Shown in pieces: positions 7,456 through 46,250 of a stretch of DNA of 64,000 nucleotides. Both the position numbers and the translations under genes were made by a program. The stretch lies in assembly GCF_988242995.1 (NCBI RefSeq), contig NZ_OZ547043.1; one strand, given 5' to 3'. The notes under the pieces are model-generated. The model was given only the letters and a program-made list of their open reading frames with translations. It ran no database searches and was not told the origin of the DNA. How positions within the stretch are numbered: the first letter of the stretch is position 1; every line of letters starts with the position of its first letter.

Positions 7456-8769
<1,314 letters not shown>

Positions 8770-8841
8770 TCACTAGTTAAACTGAAACTCCAGACAAACA
8801 ACGCGTACCCAGGGTACGCGTTGCCGTTCTAACTTTTTTAC

Positions 8842-10494
<1,653 letters not shown>

Positions 10495-10706
10495 TTAGGT
10501 TGAAAAGACGATGGAATAACCAGGACGGGAAAGCAGTATACCCGAACATGACCTGTGCCACAAACTTTCATTATCCCTCCTCTTCGCCAGCGCACTATTG
10601 AAATCAGGAGTGAGAAAATAGCCCCTTTGGGGTAAATGTTTTTGACGCAAATCAAGCGCTTGTCATTTAAAAAATGACACAAATCGCGCTTGACCACGTA
10701 ATTCCC

Positions 10707-11498
10707 TTAGAGATCAATTTCCTGCCGTTTTACCTGTTGCCAGACTTCTTCCATTGTTTCGAGGTCAACACCTGTCATTTCCAGTCCACGCGCGGCAACA
10801 ATACGCTCCACTTCGCGAAAACGACGCTCGAATTTTTCATTGGCTTTTTGCAATGCGATTTCCGCTTTTGTCCCTAAATGACGAGCCAGATTGACCGTGG
10901 CAAACAGCAGGTCGCCCATTTCCTCCTCCAGTTTAGCCTGGTCGATAACAGCCTGCCGTGCCTCGTACATCACCTCGTCGATCTCTTCGTAGACTTTATC
11001 GACTACCGGACCAAGCGTCGTCCAGTCAAAACCAACGTTGGCGCAACGTTTCTGGATTTTTTGTGCACGCATTAATGCCGGTAAACTACGAGGAATATCG
11101 TCCAGCGCCGAATGCTGCGCTTTCTGCGCGCGCTCTTCGGTTTTGATTTGCTCCCAACGGGCAAGCACTTCACTACTGTTTTCGGCAGAACTGTCAGCAA
11201 AAACATGCGGATGGCGACGTTCTAATTTATCGCTGATCGCGGCGCAAATATCATTAAAGTCAAAGCGCCCTTCTTCCTGGGCCATTTGTGCGTAAAACAC
11301 CACCTGGAACAGCAGATCGCCCAGTTCACCGCGCAGATCGTCAAAATCTTCACGGGCGATGGCGTCCAGCACCTCGTAGGTTTCTTCAAGGGTGTAAGGC
11401 GCAATGGTGGCAAATGTCTGCTCTTTATCCCACGGGCAGCCGTTTTCCGGGTCGCGCAGGCGCTGCATGATGGTGAGCAAACGGTCGATTTGATTCAT
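10707..11498 (-). CDS. mazG: Nucleoside triphosphate pyrophosphohydrolase
   Basis: 263-aa ORF with tandem MazG-type domains (EEXXE motifs). Confidence 0.9.
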   Translation of the reverse strand: MNQIDRLLTIMQRLRDPENGCPWDKEQTFATIAPYTLEETYEVLDAIAREDFDDLRGELGDLLFQVVFYAQMAQEEGRFDFNDICAAISDKLERRHPHVFADSSAENSSEVLARWEQIKTEERAQKAQHSALDDIPRSLPALMRAQKIQKRCANVGFDWTTLGPVVDKVYEEIDEVMYEARQAVIDQAKLEEEMGDLLFATVNLARHLGTKAEIALQKANEKFERRFREVERIVAARGLEMTGVDLETMEEVWQQVKRQEIDL

Positions 11499-11556
11499 TG
11501 AATTGTCCTGAAAATTGCGGGTCTGTCAGGTGTAATACCTTCGAGTAAAAGATATC

Positions 11557-11584
11557 GCTGGATACGGCTGACGCCATATCCAGC
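11557..11584 (-). terminator. Hairpin directly after relA stop (gctggata-N12-tatccagc); possible relA terminator or attenuator
   Basis: 8-bp perfect inverted repeat read from sequence; followed on minus strand by a weak T-tract (gatatctttt). Confidence 0.3.
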
Positions 11585-11593
11585 TATGTAAGA

Positions 11594-13828
11594 CTAACTC
11601 CCGTGCAACCGACGCGCGTCGATAACATCCGGCACCTGGTTGAGTTTACCCAGCACGCGGCCCAGCACTTGCAGGTTGTAAATCTCAATGGTCATGTCGA
11701 TGGTCGCCAGTTGCTGTTTGGTGTCGCTACGGCTGGCAACGCCAAGCACGTTCACCTTCTCGTTGGCGAGAATGGTCGTGATATCACGTAACAACCCACT
11801 ACGATCATTAGCCACCACGCGGACCACCAGCGAATATCCGGCGGAGTAGCTCTCGCCCCATACCGCGTCAACAATGCGTTCTGGCGCATGGGAGCGCAGT
11901 TCCGCCAGTTGCTCACAGTCTGCACGATGCACTGAAATACCGCGTCCCTGGGTAATGAAGCCGACAATCTCATCTCCAGGAATCGGCTGGCAGCAGCGCG
12001 CGATGTGGTGCATCAGGTTACCGACACCTTCAACCACCACACGACCGTTATCTTTACTGCGGTTTTGCGGCGTGTAGCTTTTTTGCTGAAGTTGCTTCAG
12101 CGCGGCGGCGTCCTGCTCTTCGGCACTCGGCTTATTAAATTGCGATTGCAGGAAGTTCACCATCTGATTGAGACGGATATCCCCGCCACCAATCGCCGCC
12201 AGCAACTCGTCGACATCATTGAAGTTGTAACGCGGCAGCAGATGTTTTTCTGCTTCTTTCAGGCTGATCCCCAGATGTTCCAGCTCGTCGTCAAGGATTT
12301 GCCGCCCAGCCAGAATGTTTTTGTCACGGTCCTGTTTACGGAACCAGGCGTGAATTTTCGAACGCCCACGGCTGGTTGTGACGTAACCGAGGTTTGGGTT
12401 TAACCAGTCACGGCTGGGGTTCGGCTGTTTCTGGGTGATAATTTCAATCTGGTCGCCCATCTGCAGCTGGTAGGTGAACGGCACAATGCGCCCGCCAATT
12501 TTTGCCCCGATGCAGCGGTGTCCGACATCACTGTGGATGTGGTAAGCGAAGTCCAGCGGTGTTGATCCCGCAGGCAAATCAACGACATCACCTTTCGGCG
12601 TAAAGACGTACACCCGGTCGTCAAAGACCTGGCTACGTACTTCGTCGAGCATTTCGCCGGAATCAGCCATCTCTTCCTGCCACGCAATCAGTTTACGCAG
12701 CCAGGCAATCCGGTCTTCATGTCCCGAACGTGCGCCGCCAGCTGCCGCGCCCTCTTTATATTTCCAGTGCGCAGCAACACCCAACTCTGCATCTTCATGC
12801 ATCTGTTTAGTGCGGATTTGGATCTCAACGGTTTTGCCACCTGGTCCCAGAACCACGGTATGAATAGACTGATAACCGTTTGGTTTCGGGTTAGCGACGT
12901 AATCGTCAAACTCATCCGGCAGGTGGCGATAGTGAGTGTGCACTATCCCCAGTGCGGCATAACAATCCTGTAAACGCTCGGCGACAATACGTACCGCACG
13001 CACATCAAACAGCTCATCGAAGGCGAGGTTCTTTTTCTGCATTTTGCGCCAGATGCTGTAGATGTGTTTCGGACGACCATACACTTCAGCTTTAACGCCT
13101 TCAGCTTTCATCTCAGCGCGCAGATGGCCGACAAACTCTTCGATATAGTGTTCGCGGTCGAGACGGCGTTCATGCAGCAGTTTTGCGATGCGTTTGTATT
13201 CGGTCGGGTGGAGATAACGGAAGCAGTAATCTTCCAGCTCCCATTTCAGTTGTCCAATCCCAAGACGGTTCGCCAACGGCGCGTAGATATTGGTGCACTC
13301 TTTTGCCGCCAGTACGCGTTCATCTTCCGGCGCGTCTTTTACTTCGCGCAGATGAGCAATACGCTCTGCCAGTTTGATGACCACGCAGCGAAAATCATCG
13401 ACCATCGCCAATAACATCCGGCGAACGTTATCGACCTGTTCGGAGGAAACAGAATCGGTATGCGTCGCTTTCAGCTGGCGGATCGCCGCCATATCACGCA
13501 CGCCGTGAATAAGGTTAACGACCGACTTACCGACGCTCTCACGCAGCACATCTTCGCTGACTACGTTGGCATCCGCCAGAGGGAACAGCAGCGCCGCCCG
13601 CAGCGTGTCAATGTCCATACTTAATGTCGAGAGGATCTCCACCATCTCAACACCACGCCACAATAACAGACTGGCATCCGGATGCCCCTGCGTCTGTTGC
13701 AGACAATACGCCCAGGTTTCGGCTAAGCACTCACACGACTTCTGGCTGGTAATACCCAGACTTGCGATCCATTTTTCCGGATCAAATTCACCAGCCTTAT
13801 TGATATGTGCACTTCTTACCGCAACCAT
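11594..13828 (-). CDS. relA: GTP pyrophosphokinase, (p)ppGpp synthetase I
   Basis: 744-aa ORF with RelA/SpoT synthetase domain, TGS and ACT regions. Confidence 0.95.
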   Translation of the reverse strand: MVAVRSAHINKAGEFDPEKWIASLGITSQKSCECLAETWAYCLQQTQGHPDASLLLWRGVEMVEILSTLSMDIDTLRAALLFPLADANVVSEDVLRESVGKSVVNLIHGVRDMAAIRQLKATHTDSVSSEQVDNVRRMLLAMVDDFRCVVIKLAERIAHLREVKDAPEDERVLAAKECTNIYAPLANRLGIGQLKWELEDYCFRYLHPTEYKRIAKLLHERRLDREHYIEEFVGHLRAEMKAEGVKAEVYGRPKHIYSIWRKMQKKNLAFDELFDVRAVRIVAERLQDCYAALGIVHTHYRHLPDEFDDYVANPKPNGYQSIHTVVLGPGGKTVEIQIRTKQMHEDAELGVAAHWKYKEGAAAGGARSGHEDRIAWLRKLIAWQEEMADSGEMLDEVRSQVFDDRVYVFTPKGDVVDLPAGSTPLDFAYHIHSDVGHRCIGAKIGGRIVPFTYQLQMGDQIEIITQKQPNPSRDWLNPNLGYVTTSRGRSKIHAWFRKQDRDKNILAGRQILDDELEHLGISLKEAEKHLLPRYNFNDVDELLAAIGGGDIRLNQMVNFLQSQFNKPSAEEQDAAALKQLQQKSYTPQNRSKDNGRVVVEGVGNLMHHIARCCQPIPGDEIVGFITQGRGISVHRADCEQLAELRSHAPERIVDAVWGESYSAGYSLVVRVVANDRSGLLRDITTILANEKVNVLGVASRSDTKQQLATIDMTIEIYNLQVLGRVLGKLNQVPDVIDARRLHGS

Positions 13829-13875
13829 CGTCCTCTCCTTTAGGGACCAGACCTGCCGAAATCGGCAAATCGTAA

Positions 13876-15177
13876 CTATTTAACGCGCGAGAAAAGTACC
13901 ATCGATTCCAGATGTCCCGTGTGTGGGAACATATCCAGCATCGCCAGTCGCGCAATGGTATATCCTGCTTTTAATAACGCTTCGCTATCCCGAGCCAGCG
14001 TTGCAGGGTTACAGGATACATAAACTATACGAATAGGTTCCAGTTTTATAATTTGCTGCATAACACCTGCGGCACCTGCTCGCGCGGGGTCCAGCAACAC
14101 TTTATCGAAGCCGTTTTTCGCCCACGGCTGCTTTGTGACATCTTCTTCAAGATTTTCGTGATAAAACGTCACATTGTGTAAGTCATTAAGACGCGCATTC
14201 TGCTGGCCTTTTTCCACCAGCGCCGGAACACCTTCTACACCCACCACACTGGCAGCTTGTGTCGCCAATGGCAGTGTAAAGTTGCCCATACCGCAGAACA
14301 GATCCAGTACGCGATCTTCAGGTTGCACATCCAGCCATTCCAACGCACACGCTACCATTTTTTGGTTCACACCCGCATTGACCTGAATAAAATCGCGCGG
14401 GCTAAAAGTTAAGCGCAACCCGTTTGAGTCATACCAGGGCATCTCACCAGCGACGGTTTCGAGTATCTCACTATCGGGGGCGAGATACAGATCCAGGCCT
14501 TCAGAATGCGAAAAGCGTTCCAGTTTTTCGCGATCAGCCGAACTTAGCGGTGCGGTATGGCGCAAAATCATCAGCGTGCCGCTGGTTGCCTGTACCAGTT
14601 CAACATGACCAAGATGGCGCATAGCTTGTAAGCTGCCCAGGCATGCCCTGACTTTGGGCAGCAATGCTTCAAGTTGGGGCACTAAAATGGGGCATTGTTT
14701 AACGTCGACAATGTCACTGGAGCCCGCTTTGCGAAAGCCCATCTGAAGTTGCTGTGTTTTCGGTAAGTAGTTCAAACTTAAACGCGCGCGACGGCGATAG
14801 CCCCAGGGAACATCGGCGATCACTTCAGAGACCTCGTGTTTCATTAATCGGGCGAGTGCCGCACTTTTGCTTCGCTGCTGTAAATCCTCGCTGGCGTGTT
14901 GTTGCTGACAGCCGCCGCATACGCCAAAATGAGGGCAGCGTGGCGTTTCGCGTTCCGGGCTATCGCTTAACCGGCGCACGACTTTAGCGCGGGCGTATTG
15001 TTTTTTATCTTCAGTAACAGTAACTTCCGCGTTTTCCTGTGGCAATAATCCAGGAATAAATAACGCTTTGCCGTTATGTCGTGCCACGCCCTGACCAAAA
15101 GAGTCGAGGTCGTTGACTGAAACAGTTATGATCTGACGCGTCGTCGTGCGTCGTTTTGCAGAGTAGAATTGCGCCAT
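13876..15177 (-). CDS. rlmD: 23S rRNA (uracil1939-C5)-methyltransferase
   Basis: 433-aa ORF with TRAM domain, Fe-S cysteine cluster ([14 protein letters not shown]) and SAM-binding motif. Confidence 0.9.
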
Positions 15178-15233
15178 TGGCGAGACTTTCTCAATTTAAC
15201 AGTGTGACCTTAATTGTCCCATAACGGAACTCC

Positions 15234-17990
15234 ATGACCAACTACAGCCTGCGCGCACGCATGATGATTCTGATCCTGGCACCGACCGTCCTTATTGGTT
15301 TATTGCTGAGTATCTTTTTCGTTGTGCATCGCTATAACGATTTGCAGCGTCAACTGGAAGATGCCGGAGCCAGCATTATTGAGCCGCTTGCAGTTTCTAC
15401 TGAATATGGCATGAGCCTGCAAAATCGCGAATCTATCGGTCAGTTAATAAGCGTACTGCATCGTCGCCATTCCGATATTGTTCGCGCGATTTCGGTTTAT
15501 GATGAAAATAACCGACTCTTTGTCACCTCCAATTTTCATCTTGATCCCTCATCAATGCAGCTCGGCAGCAACGTGCCGTTTCCTCGCCAGCTCACTGTCA
15601 CTCGTGACGGCGATATTATGATCCTCCGCACACCGATTATTTCTGAGAGTTACTCCCCCGACGAATCGCCCAGTAGCGATGCCAAAAATAGTCAAAATAT
15701 GTTGGGATATATTGCGCTTGAGCTGGATCTTAAATCGGTTCGCTTGCAGCAATATAAAGAGATCTTTATTTCCAGCGTGATGATGCTGTTTTGTATCGGT
15801 ATTGCGCTTATTTTTGGCTGGCGCTTAATGCGCGATGTAACCGGTCCGATTCGCAATATGGTGAATACCGTCGACCGCATCCGTCGCGGGCAACTCGACA
15901 GCCGGGTGGAAGGATTTATGCTCGGCGAGCTGGATATGCTGAAAAACGGTATCAACTCGATGGCAATGTCGCTGGCTGCTTATCACGAAGAGATGCAGCA
16001 CAATATCGACCAGGCGACGTCCGATCTGCGTGAAACGCTGGAGCAGATGGAAATTCAGAACGTTGAGTTGGATCTGGCGAAAAAGCGTGCCCAGGAAGCG
16101 GCGCGTATTAAATCCGAGTTTCTGGCAAATATGTCACACGAGCTGCGTACACCACTGAATGGTGTTATTGGCTTTACTCGCCTGACGCTGAAAACAGAAT
16201 TAACACCAACGCAGCGCGATCACCTGAATACGATTGAACGTTCGGCAAATAATTTGCTGGCAATTATTAATGATGTTCTCGACTTCTCGAAACTGGAAGC
16301 AGGTAAGCTGATTCTGGAAAGTATTCCATTCCCACTACGCAGCACGCTGGATGAAGTCGTTACCCTGCTGGCACATTCTTCTCACGATAAAGGGCTGGAA
16401 CTGACGCTCAATATTAAGAGCGACGTGCCCGATAACGTAATTGGCGACCCACTGCGATTACAGCAAATCATCACTAACCTGGTAGGGAATGCAATTAAAT
16501 TCACCGAGAATGGCAACATTGATATTCTGGTAGAAAAACGTGCGCTGAGTAATACCAAAGTGCAGATTGAAGTGCAGATTCGGGATACCGGCATTGGTAT
16601 TCCTGAACGCGATCAATCGCGCTTATTCCAGGCCTTCCGACAGGCTGATGCCAGTATTTCCCGCCGTCATGGTGGCACCGGGCTGGGGCTGGTGATTACA
16701 CAAAAACTGGTTAATGAAATGGGCGGCGATATTTCGTTCCATAGCCAGCCGAATCGCGGTTCAACTTTCTGGTTCCACATTAATCTCGATCTGAACCCGA
16801 ACATTATTATCGAAGGGCCATCCACCCAGTGCCTAGCCGGCAAGCGCCTGGCCTATGTCGAACCAAACTCCGCAGCAGCGCAATGCACGCTGGATATTTT
16901 AAGTGAAACGCCGCTGGAAGTGGTTTATAGCCCAACGTTCTCCGCGCTGCCTCCCGCGCATTACGACATGATGTTGTTAGGCATCGCGGTGACCTTCCGC
17001 GAGCCGCTAACAATGCAACATGAGCGATTAGCGAAAGCGGTATCGATGACCGATTTTCTGATGCTGGCACTTCCTTGCCATGCACAAGTCAATGCTGAAA
17101 AACTTAAGCAAGATGGTATCGGCGCGTGTCTGCTGAAACCATTAACACCTACGCGCCTGTTACCTGCCCTGACGGAATTTTGTCATCACAAACAAAACAC
17201 GCTTTTGCCTGTAACCGATGAAAGTAAGCTGGCAATGACAGTCATGGCGGTTGATGACAACCCCGCTAACCTGAAACTTATCGGCGCATTGCTGGAAGAT
17301 ATGGTGCAACATGTGGAACTTTGCGATAGCGGGCATCAGGCGGTTGAACGGGCGAAACAAATGCCGTTCGATTTGATCTTAATGGATATTCAAATGCCGG
17401 ACATGGACGGCATTCGGGCCTGCGAGCTCATCCACCAGCTCCCCCATCAGCAACAAACGCCAGTTATCGCGGTAACGGCGCATGCAATGGCCGGGCAAAA
17501 AGAGAAGCTGCTTGGCGCAGGGATGAGCGATTATCTGGCGAAACCGATTGAAGAAGAGCGATTGCATAATTTGTTGTTGCGCTACAAGCCTGGCAGCGGT
17601 ATTTCCTCTCGCGTCGTGACGCCCGAAGTCAACGAAATTGTGGTGAACCCGAATGCGACCCTCGACTGGCAACTGGCACTACGCCAGGCAGCAGGAAAAA
17701 CCGATTTAGCGCGCGATATGCTGCAAATGTTACTCGATTTCCTGCCTGAAGTTCGCAACAAAGTTGAGGAACAGCTGGTTGGAGAAAACCCGGAAGGCCT
17801 GGTTGATTTGATTCATAAACTGCATGGCAGTTGCGGCTATAGCGGTGTGCCGCGTATGAAGAATCTCTGCCAACTGATCGAACAACAGCTACGTAGCGGT
17901 ACTAAAGAAGAAGATTTGGAGCCGGAGCTGCTGGAACTGTTAGACGAGATGGATAATGTAGCGCGCGAAGCCAGCAAAATTCTCGGGTAA
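15234..17990 (+). CDS. barA: Hybrid sensor histidine kinase of the BarA/UvrY two-component system
   Basis: 918-aa ORF with HAMP, HisKA (H-box SHELRTPLN), HATPase, receiver and HPt domains. Confidence 0.95.
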
Positions 17991-18121
17991 CGGACGTCTT
18001 GTCGAGTCAAAATAGGTTCCGTCCAATGCCAATGCTGGGAGCAGCACAGACAGTCCCCTCGCCCCTCCGGGGAGAGGGCGAGGGGGAAAACCGGCCCCGT
18101 AAACCACTTCGTCAGTAATCT

Positions 18122-18160
18122 CAAACCGACTTCTTATGAAGCCGGTTTTGGTTTTCTGTC
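18122..18160 (+). terminator. Probable barA intrinsic terminator
   Basis: Imperfect hairpin (aaaccgacttc-ttat-gaagccggttt) followed by ttttggttttc. Confidence 0.4.
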
Positions 18161-19501
18161 TTAACGCACCATGCACGGGCGCTTGTTATCAAACGTCCAG
18201 CCAGGAATCAGATACTGCATTCCCATCGCATCGTCTCGCGCACCAAGCCCATGTTTCTGATACAGCTCGTGGGCTTTCATCACCTGATCCATATCGATTT
18301 CTACGCCCAATCCTGGTTTTTGCGGCACCTGTACCAGCCCGCCTTTGATCTCAAACGGTTCTTTGGTCAGACGCTGATTGCCTTCCTGCCAGATCCAGTG
18401 CGTATCAATAGCAGTAATTTTACCCGGTGCAGCAGCGGCTACATGAGTAAACATCGCCAGGGAAATATCGAAGTGGTTGTTAGAGTGTGAACCCCAGGTC
18501 AGGCCAAATTCATGGCACATTTGCGCCACACGTACCGAACCTTGCATCGTCCAGAAATGCGGATCCGCCAGCGGGATATCAACGGATTGTAACGAGAGCG
18601 TATGGCCCATCTGCCGCCAGTCGGTGGCGATCATATTGGTTGCGGTCGGCAGGCCAGTCGCGCGACGGAACTCTGCCATCACTTCACGCCCGGAGAAACC
18701 TTGCTCCGCACCACACGGATCTTCTGCATAAGCCAGCGAACCTTTCAGGTATTTACCAATTTTAATCGCTTCGTTCAGCGACCAGGCACCGTTAGGATCG
18801 AGGGTAATACGCGCCTGTGGGAAGCGTTGCGCCAGTGCCACAATAGATTCTGCTTCTTCTTCCCCGGCCAGTACACCGCCCTTCAGTTTGAAATCGTTGA
18901 AGCCATATTTTTCATATGCCGCTTCCGCCAGGCGCACCACCGCATCCGGCGTCATCGCTTCTTCGTGACGCAGGCGATACCAGTCACATTTATCATCCGG
19001 CTGGCTTTGATACGGCAGCGGTGTGGCTTTGCGATTACCGACGAAGAACAGATAACCGAGCATTTCGACTTCGCTACGCTGTTGACCATCGCCCAGCAGC
19101 GATGCCACGTTAACCCCCAGATGCTGCCCCAGCAGATCCAGCATTGCCGCTTCTATCCCGGTAACCACATGAATAGTGGTCCGCAGGTCAAATGTCTGCA
19201 AACCGCGCCCGCCGGCATCACGATCGGCAAATGTATTACGCACCAGCGTCAGAACGTTTTTGTATTCACCCAGCGTTTTACCCACCACCAGCGGAATCGC
19301 ATCTTCCAGCGTTTTACGGATTTTCTCGCCGCCGGGAATTTCCCCTACCCCGGTGTGACCAGAATTATCTTTGATAATCACAATATTACGCGTGAAGAAC
19401 GGTGCGTGTGCACCACTCAGATTCATCAGCATACTGTCATGGCCCGCCACCGGGATGACCTGCATTTCAGTAACAACAGGCGTCGAAAATTGAGAACTCA
19501 T
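18161..19501 (-). CDS. gudD: Glucarate dehydratase
   Basis: ORF track 18161..19525; start moved to [20 protein letters not shown]; enolase-superfamily fold, paralogous to the upstream gene. Confidence 0.9.
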
Positions 19502-19521
19502 CTTTATGTCCTTTTTCAAAA

Positions 19522-20862
19522 TCAATGACGGCCGAAAACGGGACGTTTACAGTCAAAGGTCCAGCCGGGGATCAGGTACTGCATCGGGCCCGCGTCGTTA
19601 CGCGCACCCCCAGGCAGACGTTTATAGGCCTCATGCGCCTTTTGTACCTGCTCCCAGTCCAGTCCCACGCCCAGACCGGGCGCATCAGGAACGGCAATTT
19701 TTCCGTTTTTAATCTCCAGCGGATTTTTGGTCAGGCGACAATCGCCCTCCTGCCAAATCCAGTGGGTATCGATAGCGGTAGGATTACCCGGTGCCGCCGC
19801 ACCCACATGGGTAAACATCGCCAGAGAGATATCAAAGTGGTTATTGGAATGGCAGCCCCAGGTCAGCCCCCAGTCGTCGCAAAGTTGCGCCACGCGGACT
19901 GCACCGGAAAGCGTCCAGAAGTGCGGATCGGCAAGTGGAATATCTACCGCATTGAGCATCACCGCATGGCCCATTTCGCGCCAGTTGGTGGCGATCATGT
20001 TAGTCGCGACGGGCAAGCCGGTCGCCCGTCGAAACTCCGCCATCACTTCACGTCCGGAGAACCCCTGTTCTGCTCCGCATGGATCTTCAGCATAGGTAAG
20101 AACATCATTCAGCCCTTTGCACAGAGAAATGGCTTCATCAAGCAGCCATGCACCGTTGGGATCAACGGTAATCCGCGCATCCGGGAAGCGTTTCTTCAAT
20201 GCACGAACAGTGTCGATTTCTTGCTCGCCAGGTAACACGCCGCCCTTAAGTTTGAAATCTTTAAAGCCGTAGCGATCCTGTGAGGCTTCCGCCAGACGCA
20301 CAACGGCTTCGCTGTTCATCGCTTTCTGATGGCGCAACTGATACCACTCATGGTTGCCCGGCGTATTTTCCAGATAAGGAAGATCGGTTTTGGTCCGATC
20401 ACCGATATAAAACAGATAACCGAGGACGGTAATAGCCTCGCGTTGCTTGCCTGGCCCCAACAGTTCGCAGACCGGAACATTCAGCGCCTTACCTAGCAGG
20501 TCAAGCAAGGCGGCTTCCAGCGCCGCCACGGCATTAACGCGCAATTCAAAAGTCCAGGCACCTTTGCCGAAGGTATCAAAATCGGCTGCCTGATTACCTT
20601 TATGCACCTGCTGAACCACTTTATTCAGGCGCGCAACTTCCTGGCCCAACACCATCGGAATAGCATCGACCAGTGTCTGATAAATCACCTCTCCGCCTGG
20701 CGCTTCACCAATGCCGGTATGCCCGGCGTTATCGGTGAGTACCACAATATTGCGAGTGAAATATGCGTTATGCGCCCCACCAATATTAAGCAACATGCTA
20801 TCGTGCCCGGCGACCGGAATGACTTTCATATCAGTAATAACAGGACTGGATTGTGTCGTCAT
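19522..20862 (-). CDS. gudX: Glucarate dehydratase-related protein
   Basis: 446-aa ORF, paralogous to gudD with long identical peptide blocks ([25 protein letters not shown]). Confidence 0.9.
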
Positions 20863-31949: not shown

Positions 31950-32035
31950 GTGCCGGATGCAAACGATTATCAACACATTGAATTTAATGAACTTATACGC
32001 CGGATAAGACGCAGCTAGCGTCGCATCCGGCATTA
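31950..32035. repeat. REP (repetitive extragenic palindromic) elements between xni and fucO
   Basis: gccggataagacgcagctagcgtcgcatccggca and a second gccggatgc unit. Confidence 0.7.
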
Positions 32036-46039: not shown

Positions 46040-46250
46040 TTAAAAAGGGCGAGGTTATCCCTCACCCTAAACGCATAAATGCCTGATGCGCTACGCTTAT
46101 CAGGCCTACATAACTCCTGCAATATTTTGGATTTGCATGATTTGTAGGCCGGATAAGGCGTTCACGCCGCATCCGGCATGAACAACGCGCACTTAGTCAA
46201 TAATCAGGATGTGAGGTTACCCCTCACCCTGTCATATCCGTAAAAACGGC
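46040..46250. repeat. Composite REP cluster flanked by near-identical GGTGAGGG-type hairpin units
   Basis: REP units gcctgatgcgctacgcttatcaggcctaca and gtaggccggataaggcgttcacgccgcatccggca; flanking repeats gaggttatccctcaccct (46052-46069) and gaggttacccctcaccct (46215-46232). Confidence 0.7.

Follow-up and report, generated by a model that had tools for sequence, protein, structure and literature searches.

A mazEF-less relA–mazG junction in Escherichia coli, probably the ancestral-type allele of a presence/absence polymorphism

The relA–mazG locus and its spacer

The stretch of DNA analyzed here (the window, 64,000 nucleotides of contig NZ_OZ547043.1, assembly GCF_988242995.1) is from Escherichia coli, and its best matches over 12 kb (8000..20000), which are 99.1–99.6% identical, are found in the genomes Z1323HEC0462, XJ6.1, JNEC-KY178, and MEI003. 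The features of the locus are listed in Table 1. The identities of relA and mazG are backed by the RefSeq annotation of near-identical genomes, including that of MEI003, which has zero differences from the window over positions 9700..11498, a stretch that takes in all of mazG, and in which the gene is named mazG.

Table 1. Genes and features around the relA–mazG junction, in window coordinates
Feature	Coordinates	Strand	Basis
pyrG	8842..10479	−	ORF listing
mazG (nucleoside triphosphate pyrophosphohydrolase), 263 aa	10707..11498	−	ORF listing and RefSeq annotation of MEI003
mazG leader CACCUGACAGACCCGCAAUUUUCAGGACAAUUCA, including the mazG ribosome-binding region, common to both alleles	11499..11540	−	blastn against the K-12 mazEF region
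relA–mazG spacer, 95 bp, unoccupied (mazEF-less) allele	11499..11593	−	ORF listing, alignment
Empty-allele-specific segment, absent from the K-12/mazEF allele	11548..11593	−	K-12 junction alignment; 46-nt query
REP-like stem-loop	11557..11584	−	Fold, terminator-like scan, cross-genus alignment
relA (GTP diphosphokinase / (p)ppGpp synthetase I), 744 aa	11594..13828	−	ORF listing and RefSeq annotation of homologous loci
rlmD	13876..15177	−	ORF listing

An earlier note on this DNA had placed 95 bp between relA and mazG and had found no gene there, and the ORF listing agrees on both points (11499..11593). The only overlapping ORF of at least 30 aa is a 50-aa frame (11425..11577, minus strand) that runs into mazG and is implausible as a gene. 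In the direction of transcription, the spacer reads UAG-UCUUACAUA-(GCUGGAUAUGGC-GUCA-GCCGUAUCCAGC)-GAUAUCUUUUACUCGAAGGUAUUA-CACCUGACAGACCCGCAAUUUUCAGGACAAUUCA-AUG, with the stem-loop in parentheses.

The mazEF genes are absent from their K-12 position in the window strain. The K-12 order of relA-mazE-mazF-mazG, as given in the same note, is that of the RefSeq annotation of a K-12 derivative. The claim that MazE and MazF are lacking throughout the window was also borne out, given that tblastn searches of the whole 64 kb with the K-12 proteins recovered no homologue of either MazE (best E = 1.0) or MazF (best E = 0.37), and no ORF suitable for MazF is found in the spacer. These searches cover the 64 kb of the window, and other MazF-family paralogues may be encoded elsewhere in the genome. 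When the K-12 mazEF DNA is compared with the whole window by blastn, it matches only the 42 nt located immediately upstream of mazG (11499..11540), which are common to both alleles of the site. The palindrome of the mazEF promoter/operator was not found after the relA stop codon, where the corresponding alignment columns present an identity of 2/45.

The hairpin that had been proposed at 11557..11584 is real, with a 12-bp stem, which includes seven G-C pairs, a 4-nt loop, and a folding energy of −23.3 kcal/mol (GCUGGAUAUGGC-GUCA-GCCGUAUCCAGC, followed by GAUAUCUUUU), and it is flagged by a simple terminator-like scan. The U-tract is weak, with four consecutive U beginning 6 nt past the stem. 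The fold of the whole spacer reaches −35.5 kcal/mol (z = −5.7 against shuffles), and no Rfam family matches 10400..14000 at E ≤ 1. In L003, a species representative labelled E. coli, the stem differs from that of the window by one compensatory change, from U-A to C-G, and three wobble-compatible changes. Over 79 species, the minimum free energy of the 60 nt that follow the relA stop has a median of −21.1 kcal/mol, against −18.1 kcal/mol for 60-mers of the relA coding sequence, a comparison that is not discriminating. An argument for a conserved terminator based on these cross-species energies was dropped, as there is no clear excess over the coding-sequence controls.

Two alleles of the junction and their polarity

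The relA–mazG site is a two-allele presence/absence polymorphism in E. coli. A search of 5426 complete E. coli genomes with a 151-bp junction query (coverage of at least 80%) recovered the empty junction in 1006, or approximately 18.5%, while the coding DNA of the K-12 mazEF is present in 4419 (about 81%), always in the chromosome and never in a plasmid; the two sets together account for 5425 of the 5426 genomes. The 46 nt specific to the empty allele (11548..11593) occur as one copy in exactly 1006 genomes, in 988 of them at an identity of at least 99%, and both this segment and the spacer are 100% identical between the window and MEI003. The loss of mazEF through a collapse in the assembly, in favor of which nothing was counted, is refuted by the occurrence of the identical junction in these 1006 independently finished genomes, which include the reference strains CFT073, JJ1886, and 042.

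Direct checks found the 95-bp spacer in CFT073, JJ1886, and 042, and mazEF in K-12, O157:H7, and UTI89. We take CFT073 (ST73) and JJ1886 (ST131) to be members of phylogroup B2, 042 of D, K-12 of A, O157:H7 of E, and UTI89 (ST95) of B2. The comparison of the junction across phylogroups, which the earlier note had proposed, rests here on these individual reference strains, and places the empty site in B2 (CFT073 and JJ1886) and D (042), and mazEF in A, E, and B2 (UTI89), with B2 holding both states. The mazEF-less strains share the spacer length of 95 bp, the hairpin segment, and the flanking genes with the window, but differ from it by point changes only, with the B2-type spacer being off at approximately three of the 151 junction positions.

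The K-12 derivative has 637 bp more than the window between relA and mazG. The coding end of relA is identical through the stop, and in the alignment the homology ends 1–3 nt past this codon; a weakly similar stretch of 22 nt (13/22) precedes its full restoration, approximately 45 nt upstream of the mazG ATG. The last alignment block is identical to K-12 at 36/36 positions, and is formed by 33 nt of the leader and the mazG start codon. The K-12 operon thus has relA, mazG, and the mazG leader in common with the window, but it lacks a hairpin after relA and, as in the occupied genomes in general, has approximately 690 bp (the mazEF promoters/operator, mazE, and mazF) in the place of the hairpin segment, which in the window is roughly 56 nt in length. 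This alignment, another of the checks proposed for the locus, reveals a segment of the spacer that is absent from the occupied allele, and no remnants of mazEF. Nothing in the occupied allele corresponds to some 46–56 nt of the empty spacer, in which the entire hairpin lies, and the simple excision of mazEF, therefore, cannot yield this spacer.

The outgroup scan, with one genome per species, covered 80 Enterobacterales loci, a set that does not include E. fergusonii, E. marmotae, or E. ruysiae. The relA gene adjoins mazG in 79 of these 80 species representatives, with a median spacer of 106 bp (150 bp or less in 60), and a MazE or MazF homologue lies between the two genes in none of the 80 loci. 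The 95-bp spacer of the window is also that of L003 and L004, two other species representatives that bear the label E. coli.

The type strain of E. albertii, NBRC 107761, resembles the window in the lack of mazE and mazF. In its 261-bp relA–mazG spacer (L005 2739..3001), however, the mazEF promoter/operator region is still represented by 32/45 nt and the sequence 3' of mazF by 40/47 nt, on the two sides of a BIME, whereas the window has none of these. The number of places occupied by this BIME in an E. coli genome has a median of 31, while the E. albertii spacer allele itself is present in no E. coli genome. To judge from the retained ends of the cassette, the E. albertii spacer is a genuine mazEF deletion scar, which implies that mazEF was once present at the site there, outside E. 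coli sensu stricto. Given this scar, the insertion of mazEF may be either old or exchanged between species.

The earlier note had left the choice between a lineage that never had mazEF at this site and a clean deletion. The second option is rejected and an ancestral-type empty site is favored, on the basis of the extra sequence, the lack of remnants, and the outgroup layout. We consider it probable (approximately 0.85) that the presence/absence polymorphism of mazEF is long-standing, and that the 95-bp spacer represents its unoccupied, ancestral-type allele, because this spacer has a sequence of its own that is absent from the occupied allele, it carries no mazEF remnants, and its layout matches that of the outgroups. 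The term "ancestral-type" describes the allele, and not necessarily an unbroken history in the lineage of the window. The derivation of the spacer by excision from an ancestor with relA-mazEF-mazG would agree with mazEF being the majority state in E. coli, with its presence in the closest 12-kb relative of the window, and with the evidence from E. albertii that mazEF loss does occur at this site. It is nevertheless highly improbable, in the face of the 46–56 nt, hairpin included, that do not exist in the occupied allele, the minimal identity to the mazEF promoter region, the near invariance of the spacer in 1006 genomes (which come from phylogroups B2 and D, at the least) and in two other species representatives of Escherichia, and the match between the outgroup layout and the empty site.

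The stem-loop downstream of relA and the cassettes found at the site

The REP/BIME elements stabilize the upstream mRNA against 3' exonucleases, and contribute to the partial attenuation of transcription. The window has a similar imperfect palindrome of approximately 30 nt, GC(Y)GGATA(W)GGCG…, which is intergenic and in a 3' position, but differs from these elements in having GCTGG/CCAGC for GCCGG/CCGGC, and in being single-copy in E. coli at blastn sensitivity. The core of the hairpin is degenerate, GCTGGATATGGCG, against the GCC(G/T)GATG/AAGGCG-type core of the REP, and the 46-nt segment never exceeds one copy per genome, unlike the dispersed REP elements and the BIME of the E. albertii spacer. 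Being both degenerate and single-copy, the palindrome would therefore be a relic, rather than an active member of the REP family.

The spacers of Citrobacter, Klebsiella, and Enterobacter open with a canonical REP, GTAGGCCGGATAAGGCG…CGCCATCCGGCA, a few nt past the relA stop, with a T-run coming next in several species, and the window hairpin aligns by position with these canonical palindromes, as a degenerate copy. This positional alignment is suggestive of the orthology of the hairpin with the REPs of the other genera, and falls short of proof, because the REP elements form a family whose members are alike. Elsewhere in the window, two canonical REP cores (GCCGGATAAGRCG) are located at 31999..32011 and 46148..46160.

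Other genera have different sequences at the relA–mazG site. In Superficieibacter sp. 1612_C1 (L018 2065..3001), for example, parDE is found between the two genes (ParD, TIGR02606, E = 9e-25; ParE, PF05016, E = 1.5e-11), which parallels the presence of parDE at this site in Salmonella, according to the literature. Buttiauxella agrestis ATCC 33320 (L042 1212..2998) has a 1.8-kb insert that encodes Hcp/TssD (TIGR03344, E = 3e-56), a 261-aa DUF4225 protein, and a 109-aa multi-pass membrane protein, and that, by its content, looks like a T6SS effector–immunity cassette. A 112-aa membrane ORF, weakly similar to that of Buttiauxella (29% identity, E = 0.003), is located at the site in Superficieibacter electus (L016 2566..2904).

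The site thus holds mazEF in Escherichia, parDE in Superficieibacter, and an hcp–DUF4225–membrane-protein cassette in Buttiauxella. The stem-loop downstream of relA might, in principle, be a point where small toxin–antidote cassettes preferentially land or are exchanged throughout the Enterobacterales, with recombination directed by REP/BIME elements or hairpins mediating both gain and loss, although we consider this doubtful. The gain would be represented by mazEF replacing the REP hairpin, and the loss by the BIME replacing mazEF in E. albertii. REP-targeted insertion was rejected as a general rule, since both REP core half-motifs are present in only 15 of the 79 spacers, and the hairpins that precede the parDE and hcp inserts are not REPs. 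If true, the idea of an exchange point would provide a concrete handle on how chromosomal toxin–antitoxin modules integrate.

Allele history, mazG expression, and biological meaning

Z1323HEC0462, the closest 12-kb match of the window (99.6%), is a mazEF-positive genome whose relA does not differ from that of the window over its final 966 bp, to the stop (11594..12559), and whose mazG differs at eight positions. The MazG and RelA proteins of the genome 2012C-4221, which also has mazEF, are the same as those of the empty MEI003, and this genome differs from the window mainly on the mazG side of the junction, within approximately 700 bp of it. A sliding divergence profile of the window against six genomes presents mosaic blocks along the flanks, and no peak at the junction, and there is, therefore, no signal of an unusually deep divergence of haplotypes tied to the indel. 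In the C-terminal region of relA, the window has five third-codon-position substitutions within 19 nt (11912..11930) in comparison with six other E. coli genomes, a cluster that it has in common with Z1323HEC0462. This cluster is probably a short recombination patch, in which RelA appears to be unchanged.

Given that both alleles are found among the close relatives of the window strain, the data fit a process in which the two alleles would be moved and shuffled among E. coli backgrounds by homologous recombination in the conserved flanks, relA and mazG. As close relatives have mazEF, the empty allele may also have come by recombination, and the lineage of the window was not necessarily always mazEF-free. 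A lineage that was once mazEF-positive would, in this case, have turned empty by homologous recombination with an empty-site donor, and the ancestral-type allele would have been acquired secondarily. We regard this replacement as possible, at somewhat less than even odds. It would account for the mazEF-positive Z1323HEC0462 being identical up to the relA stop and so similar over 12 kb, for the same MazG and RelA proteins being found with mazEF in 2012C-4221 and without it in MEI003, for the mosaic divergence of the flanks, and for the polymorphism of phylogroup B2, but the same pattern arises if it was the relatives that gained mazEF by recombination, and the data give no direction.

Whichever route brought it to the window lineage, the ancestral-type allele would be organized as relA, a single-copy REP-derived stem-loop, and the mazG leader, forming a two-gene relA–mazG unit as in most Enterobacterales. 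In the other allele, approximately 690 bp with the mazEF promoter, mazE, and mazF replace the hairpin segment, from 1–3 nt past the relA stop to approximately 45 nt before the mazG ATG. The hairpin may function as a leaky terminator or as a stabilizer of the 3' end of the relA mRNA, with part of the transcripts reading through; most likely, to argue from the REP/BIME elements, it marks or stabilizes the 3' end of the relA transcript while letting a fraction continue into mazG. With the mazEF promoters, from which mazG is driven in K-12, missing here, the expression of mazG would probably depend on this read-through by transcripts that start at the relA promoters. The only promoter-like match in the spacer, a weak one in the mazG leader (11529..11502), was rejected as a mazG promoter, since the end of its −10 hexamer lies 3 nt before the ATG and such sites are fewer than the shuffles predict.

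The read-through model agrees with the review of Fraikin, Goormaghtigh and Van Melderen (J Bacteriol 2020; PMC7167474), in which many strains are described as lacking mazEF, with relA–mazG being an undisturbed bicistronic operon, and the insertion loci of the toxin–antitoxin systems as plastic. One strain that this review names as being without mazEF, UTI89, is contradicted as an example by RefSeq, which annotates mazF and mazE between its relA and mazG genes (NC_007946.1 3065213..3065796); CFT073, JJ1886, and 042 are valid examples instead. A genome comparison, also from 2020, records the "classic mazEF close to relA" (mazF-2) in AIEC NRG857c, and its absence from CFT073 (PMC7232551).

The mazEF-less layout of relA and mazG is already known, common, and ordinary in E. 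coli. What is new here is its current frequency (1006/5426), the anatomy of the junction, in which the REP-like hairpin is replaced, and not merely interrupted, and the polarity argument from the 80 species and the E. albertii scar. [quoted passage not shown] 2015).

The earlier note had linked the locus to claims on mazEF-dependent cell death, and this link is sound, as the window strain has no relA-linked mazEF, and cannot show phenotypes that depend on the relA-linked MazEF. The MazF-dependent phenotypes of K-12, that is, programmed cell death, stress-induced mRNA cleavage, and defence against RNA phages, should not be extrapolated to this strain, and the same limit applies to approximately 18.5% of the finished E. 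coli genomes, including those of ST131 and ST73. Without the mazEF promoters, mazG must be expressed differently. A functional relA–mazG unit that lacks mazEF is widely distributed, which supports the view, already published, of mazEF as an accessory insertion that need not be tied to the adjacent genes of the stringent response.
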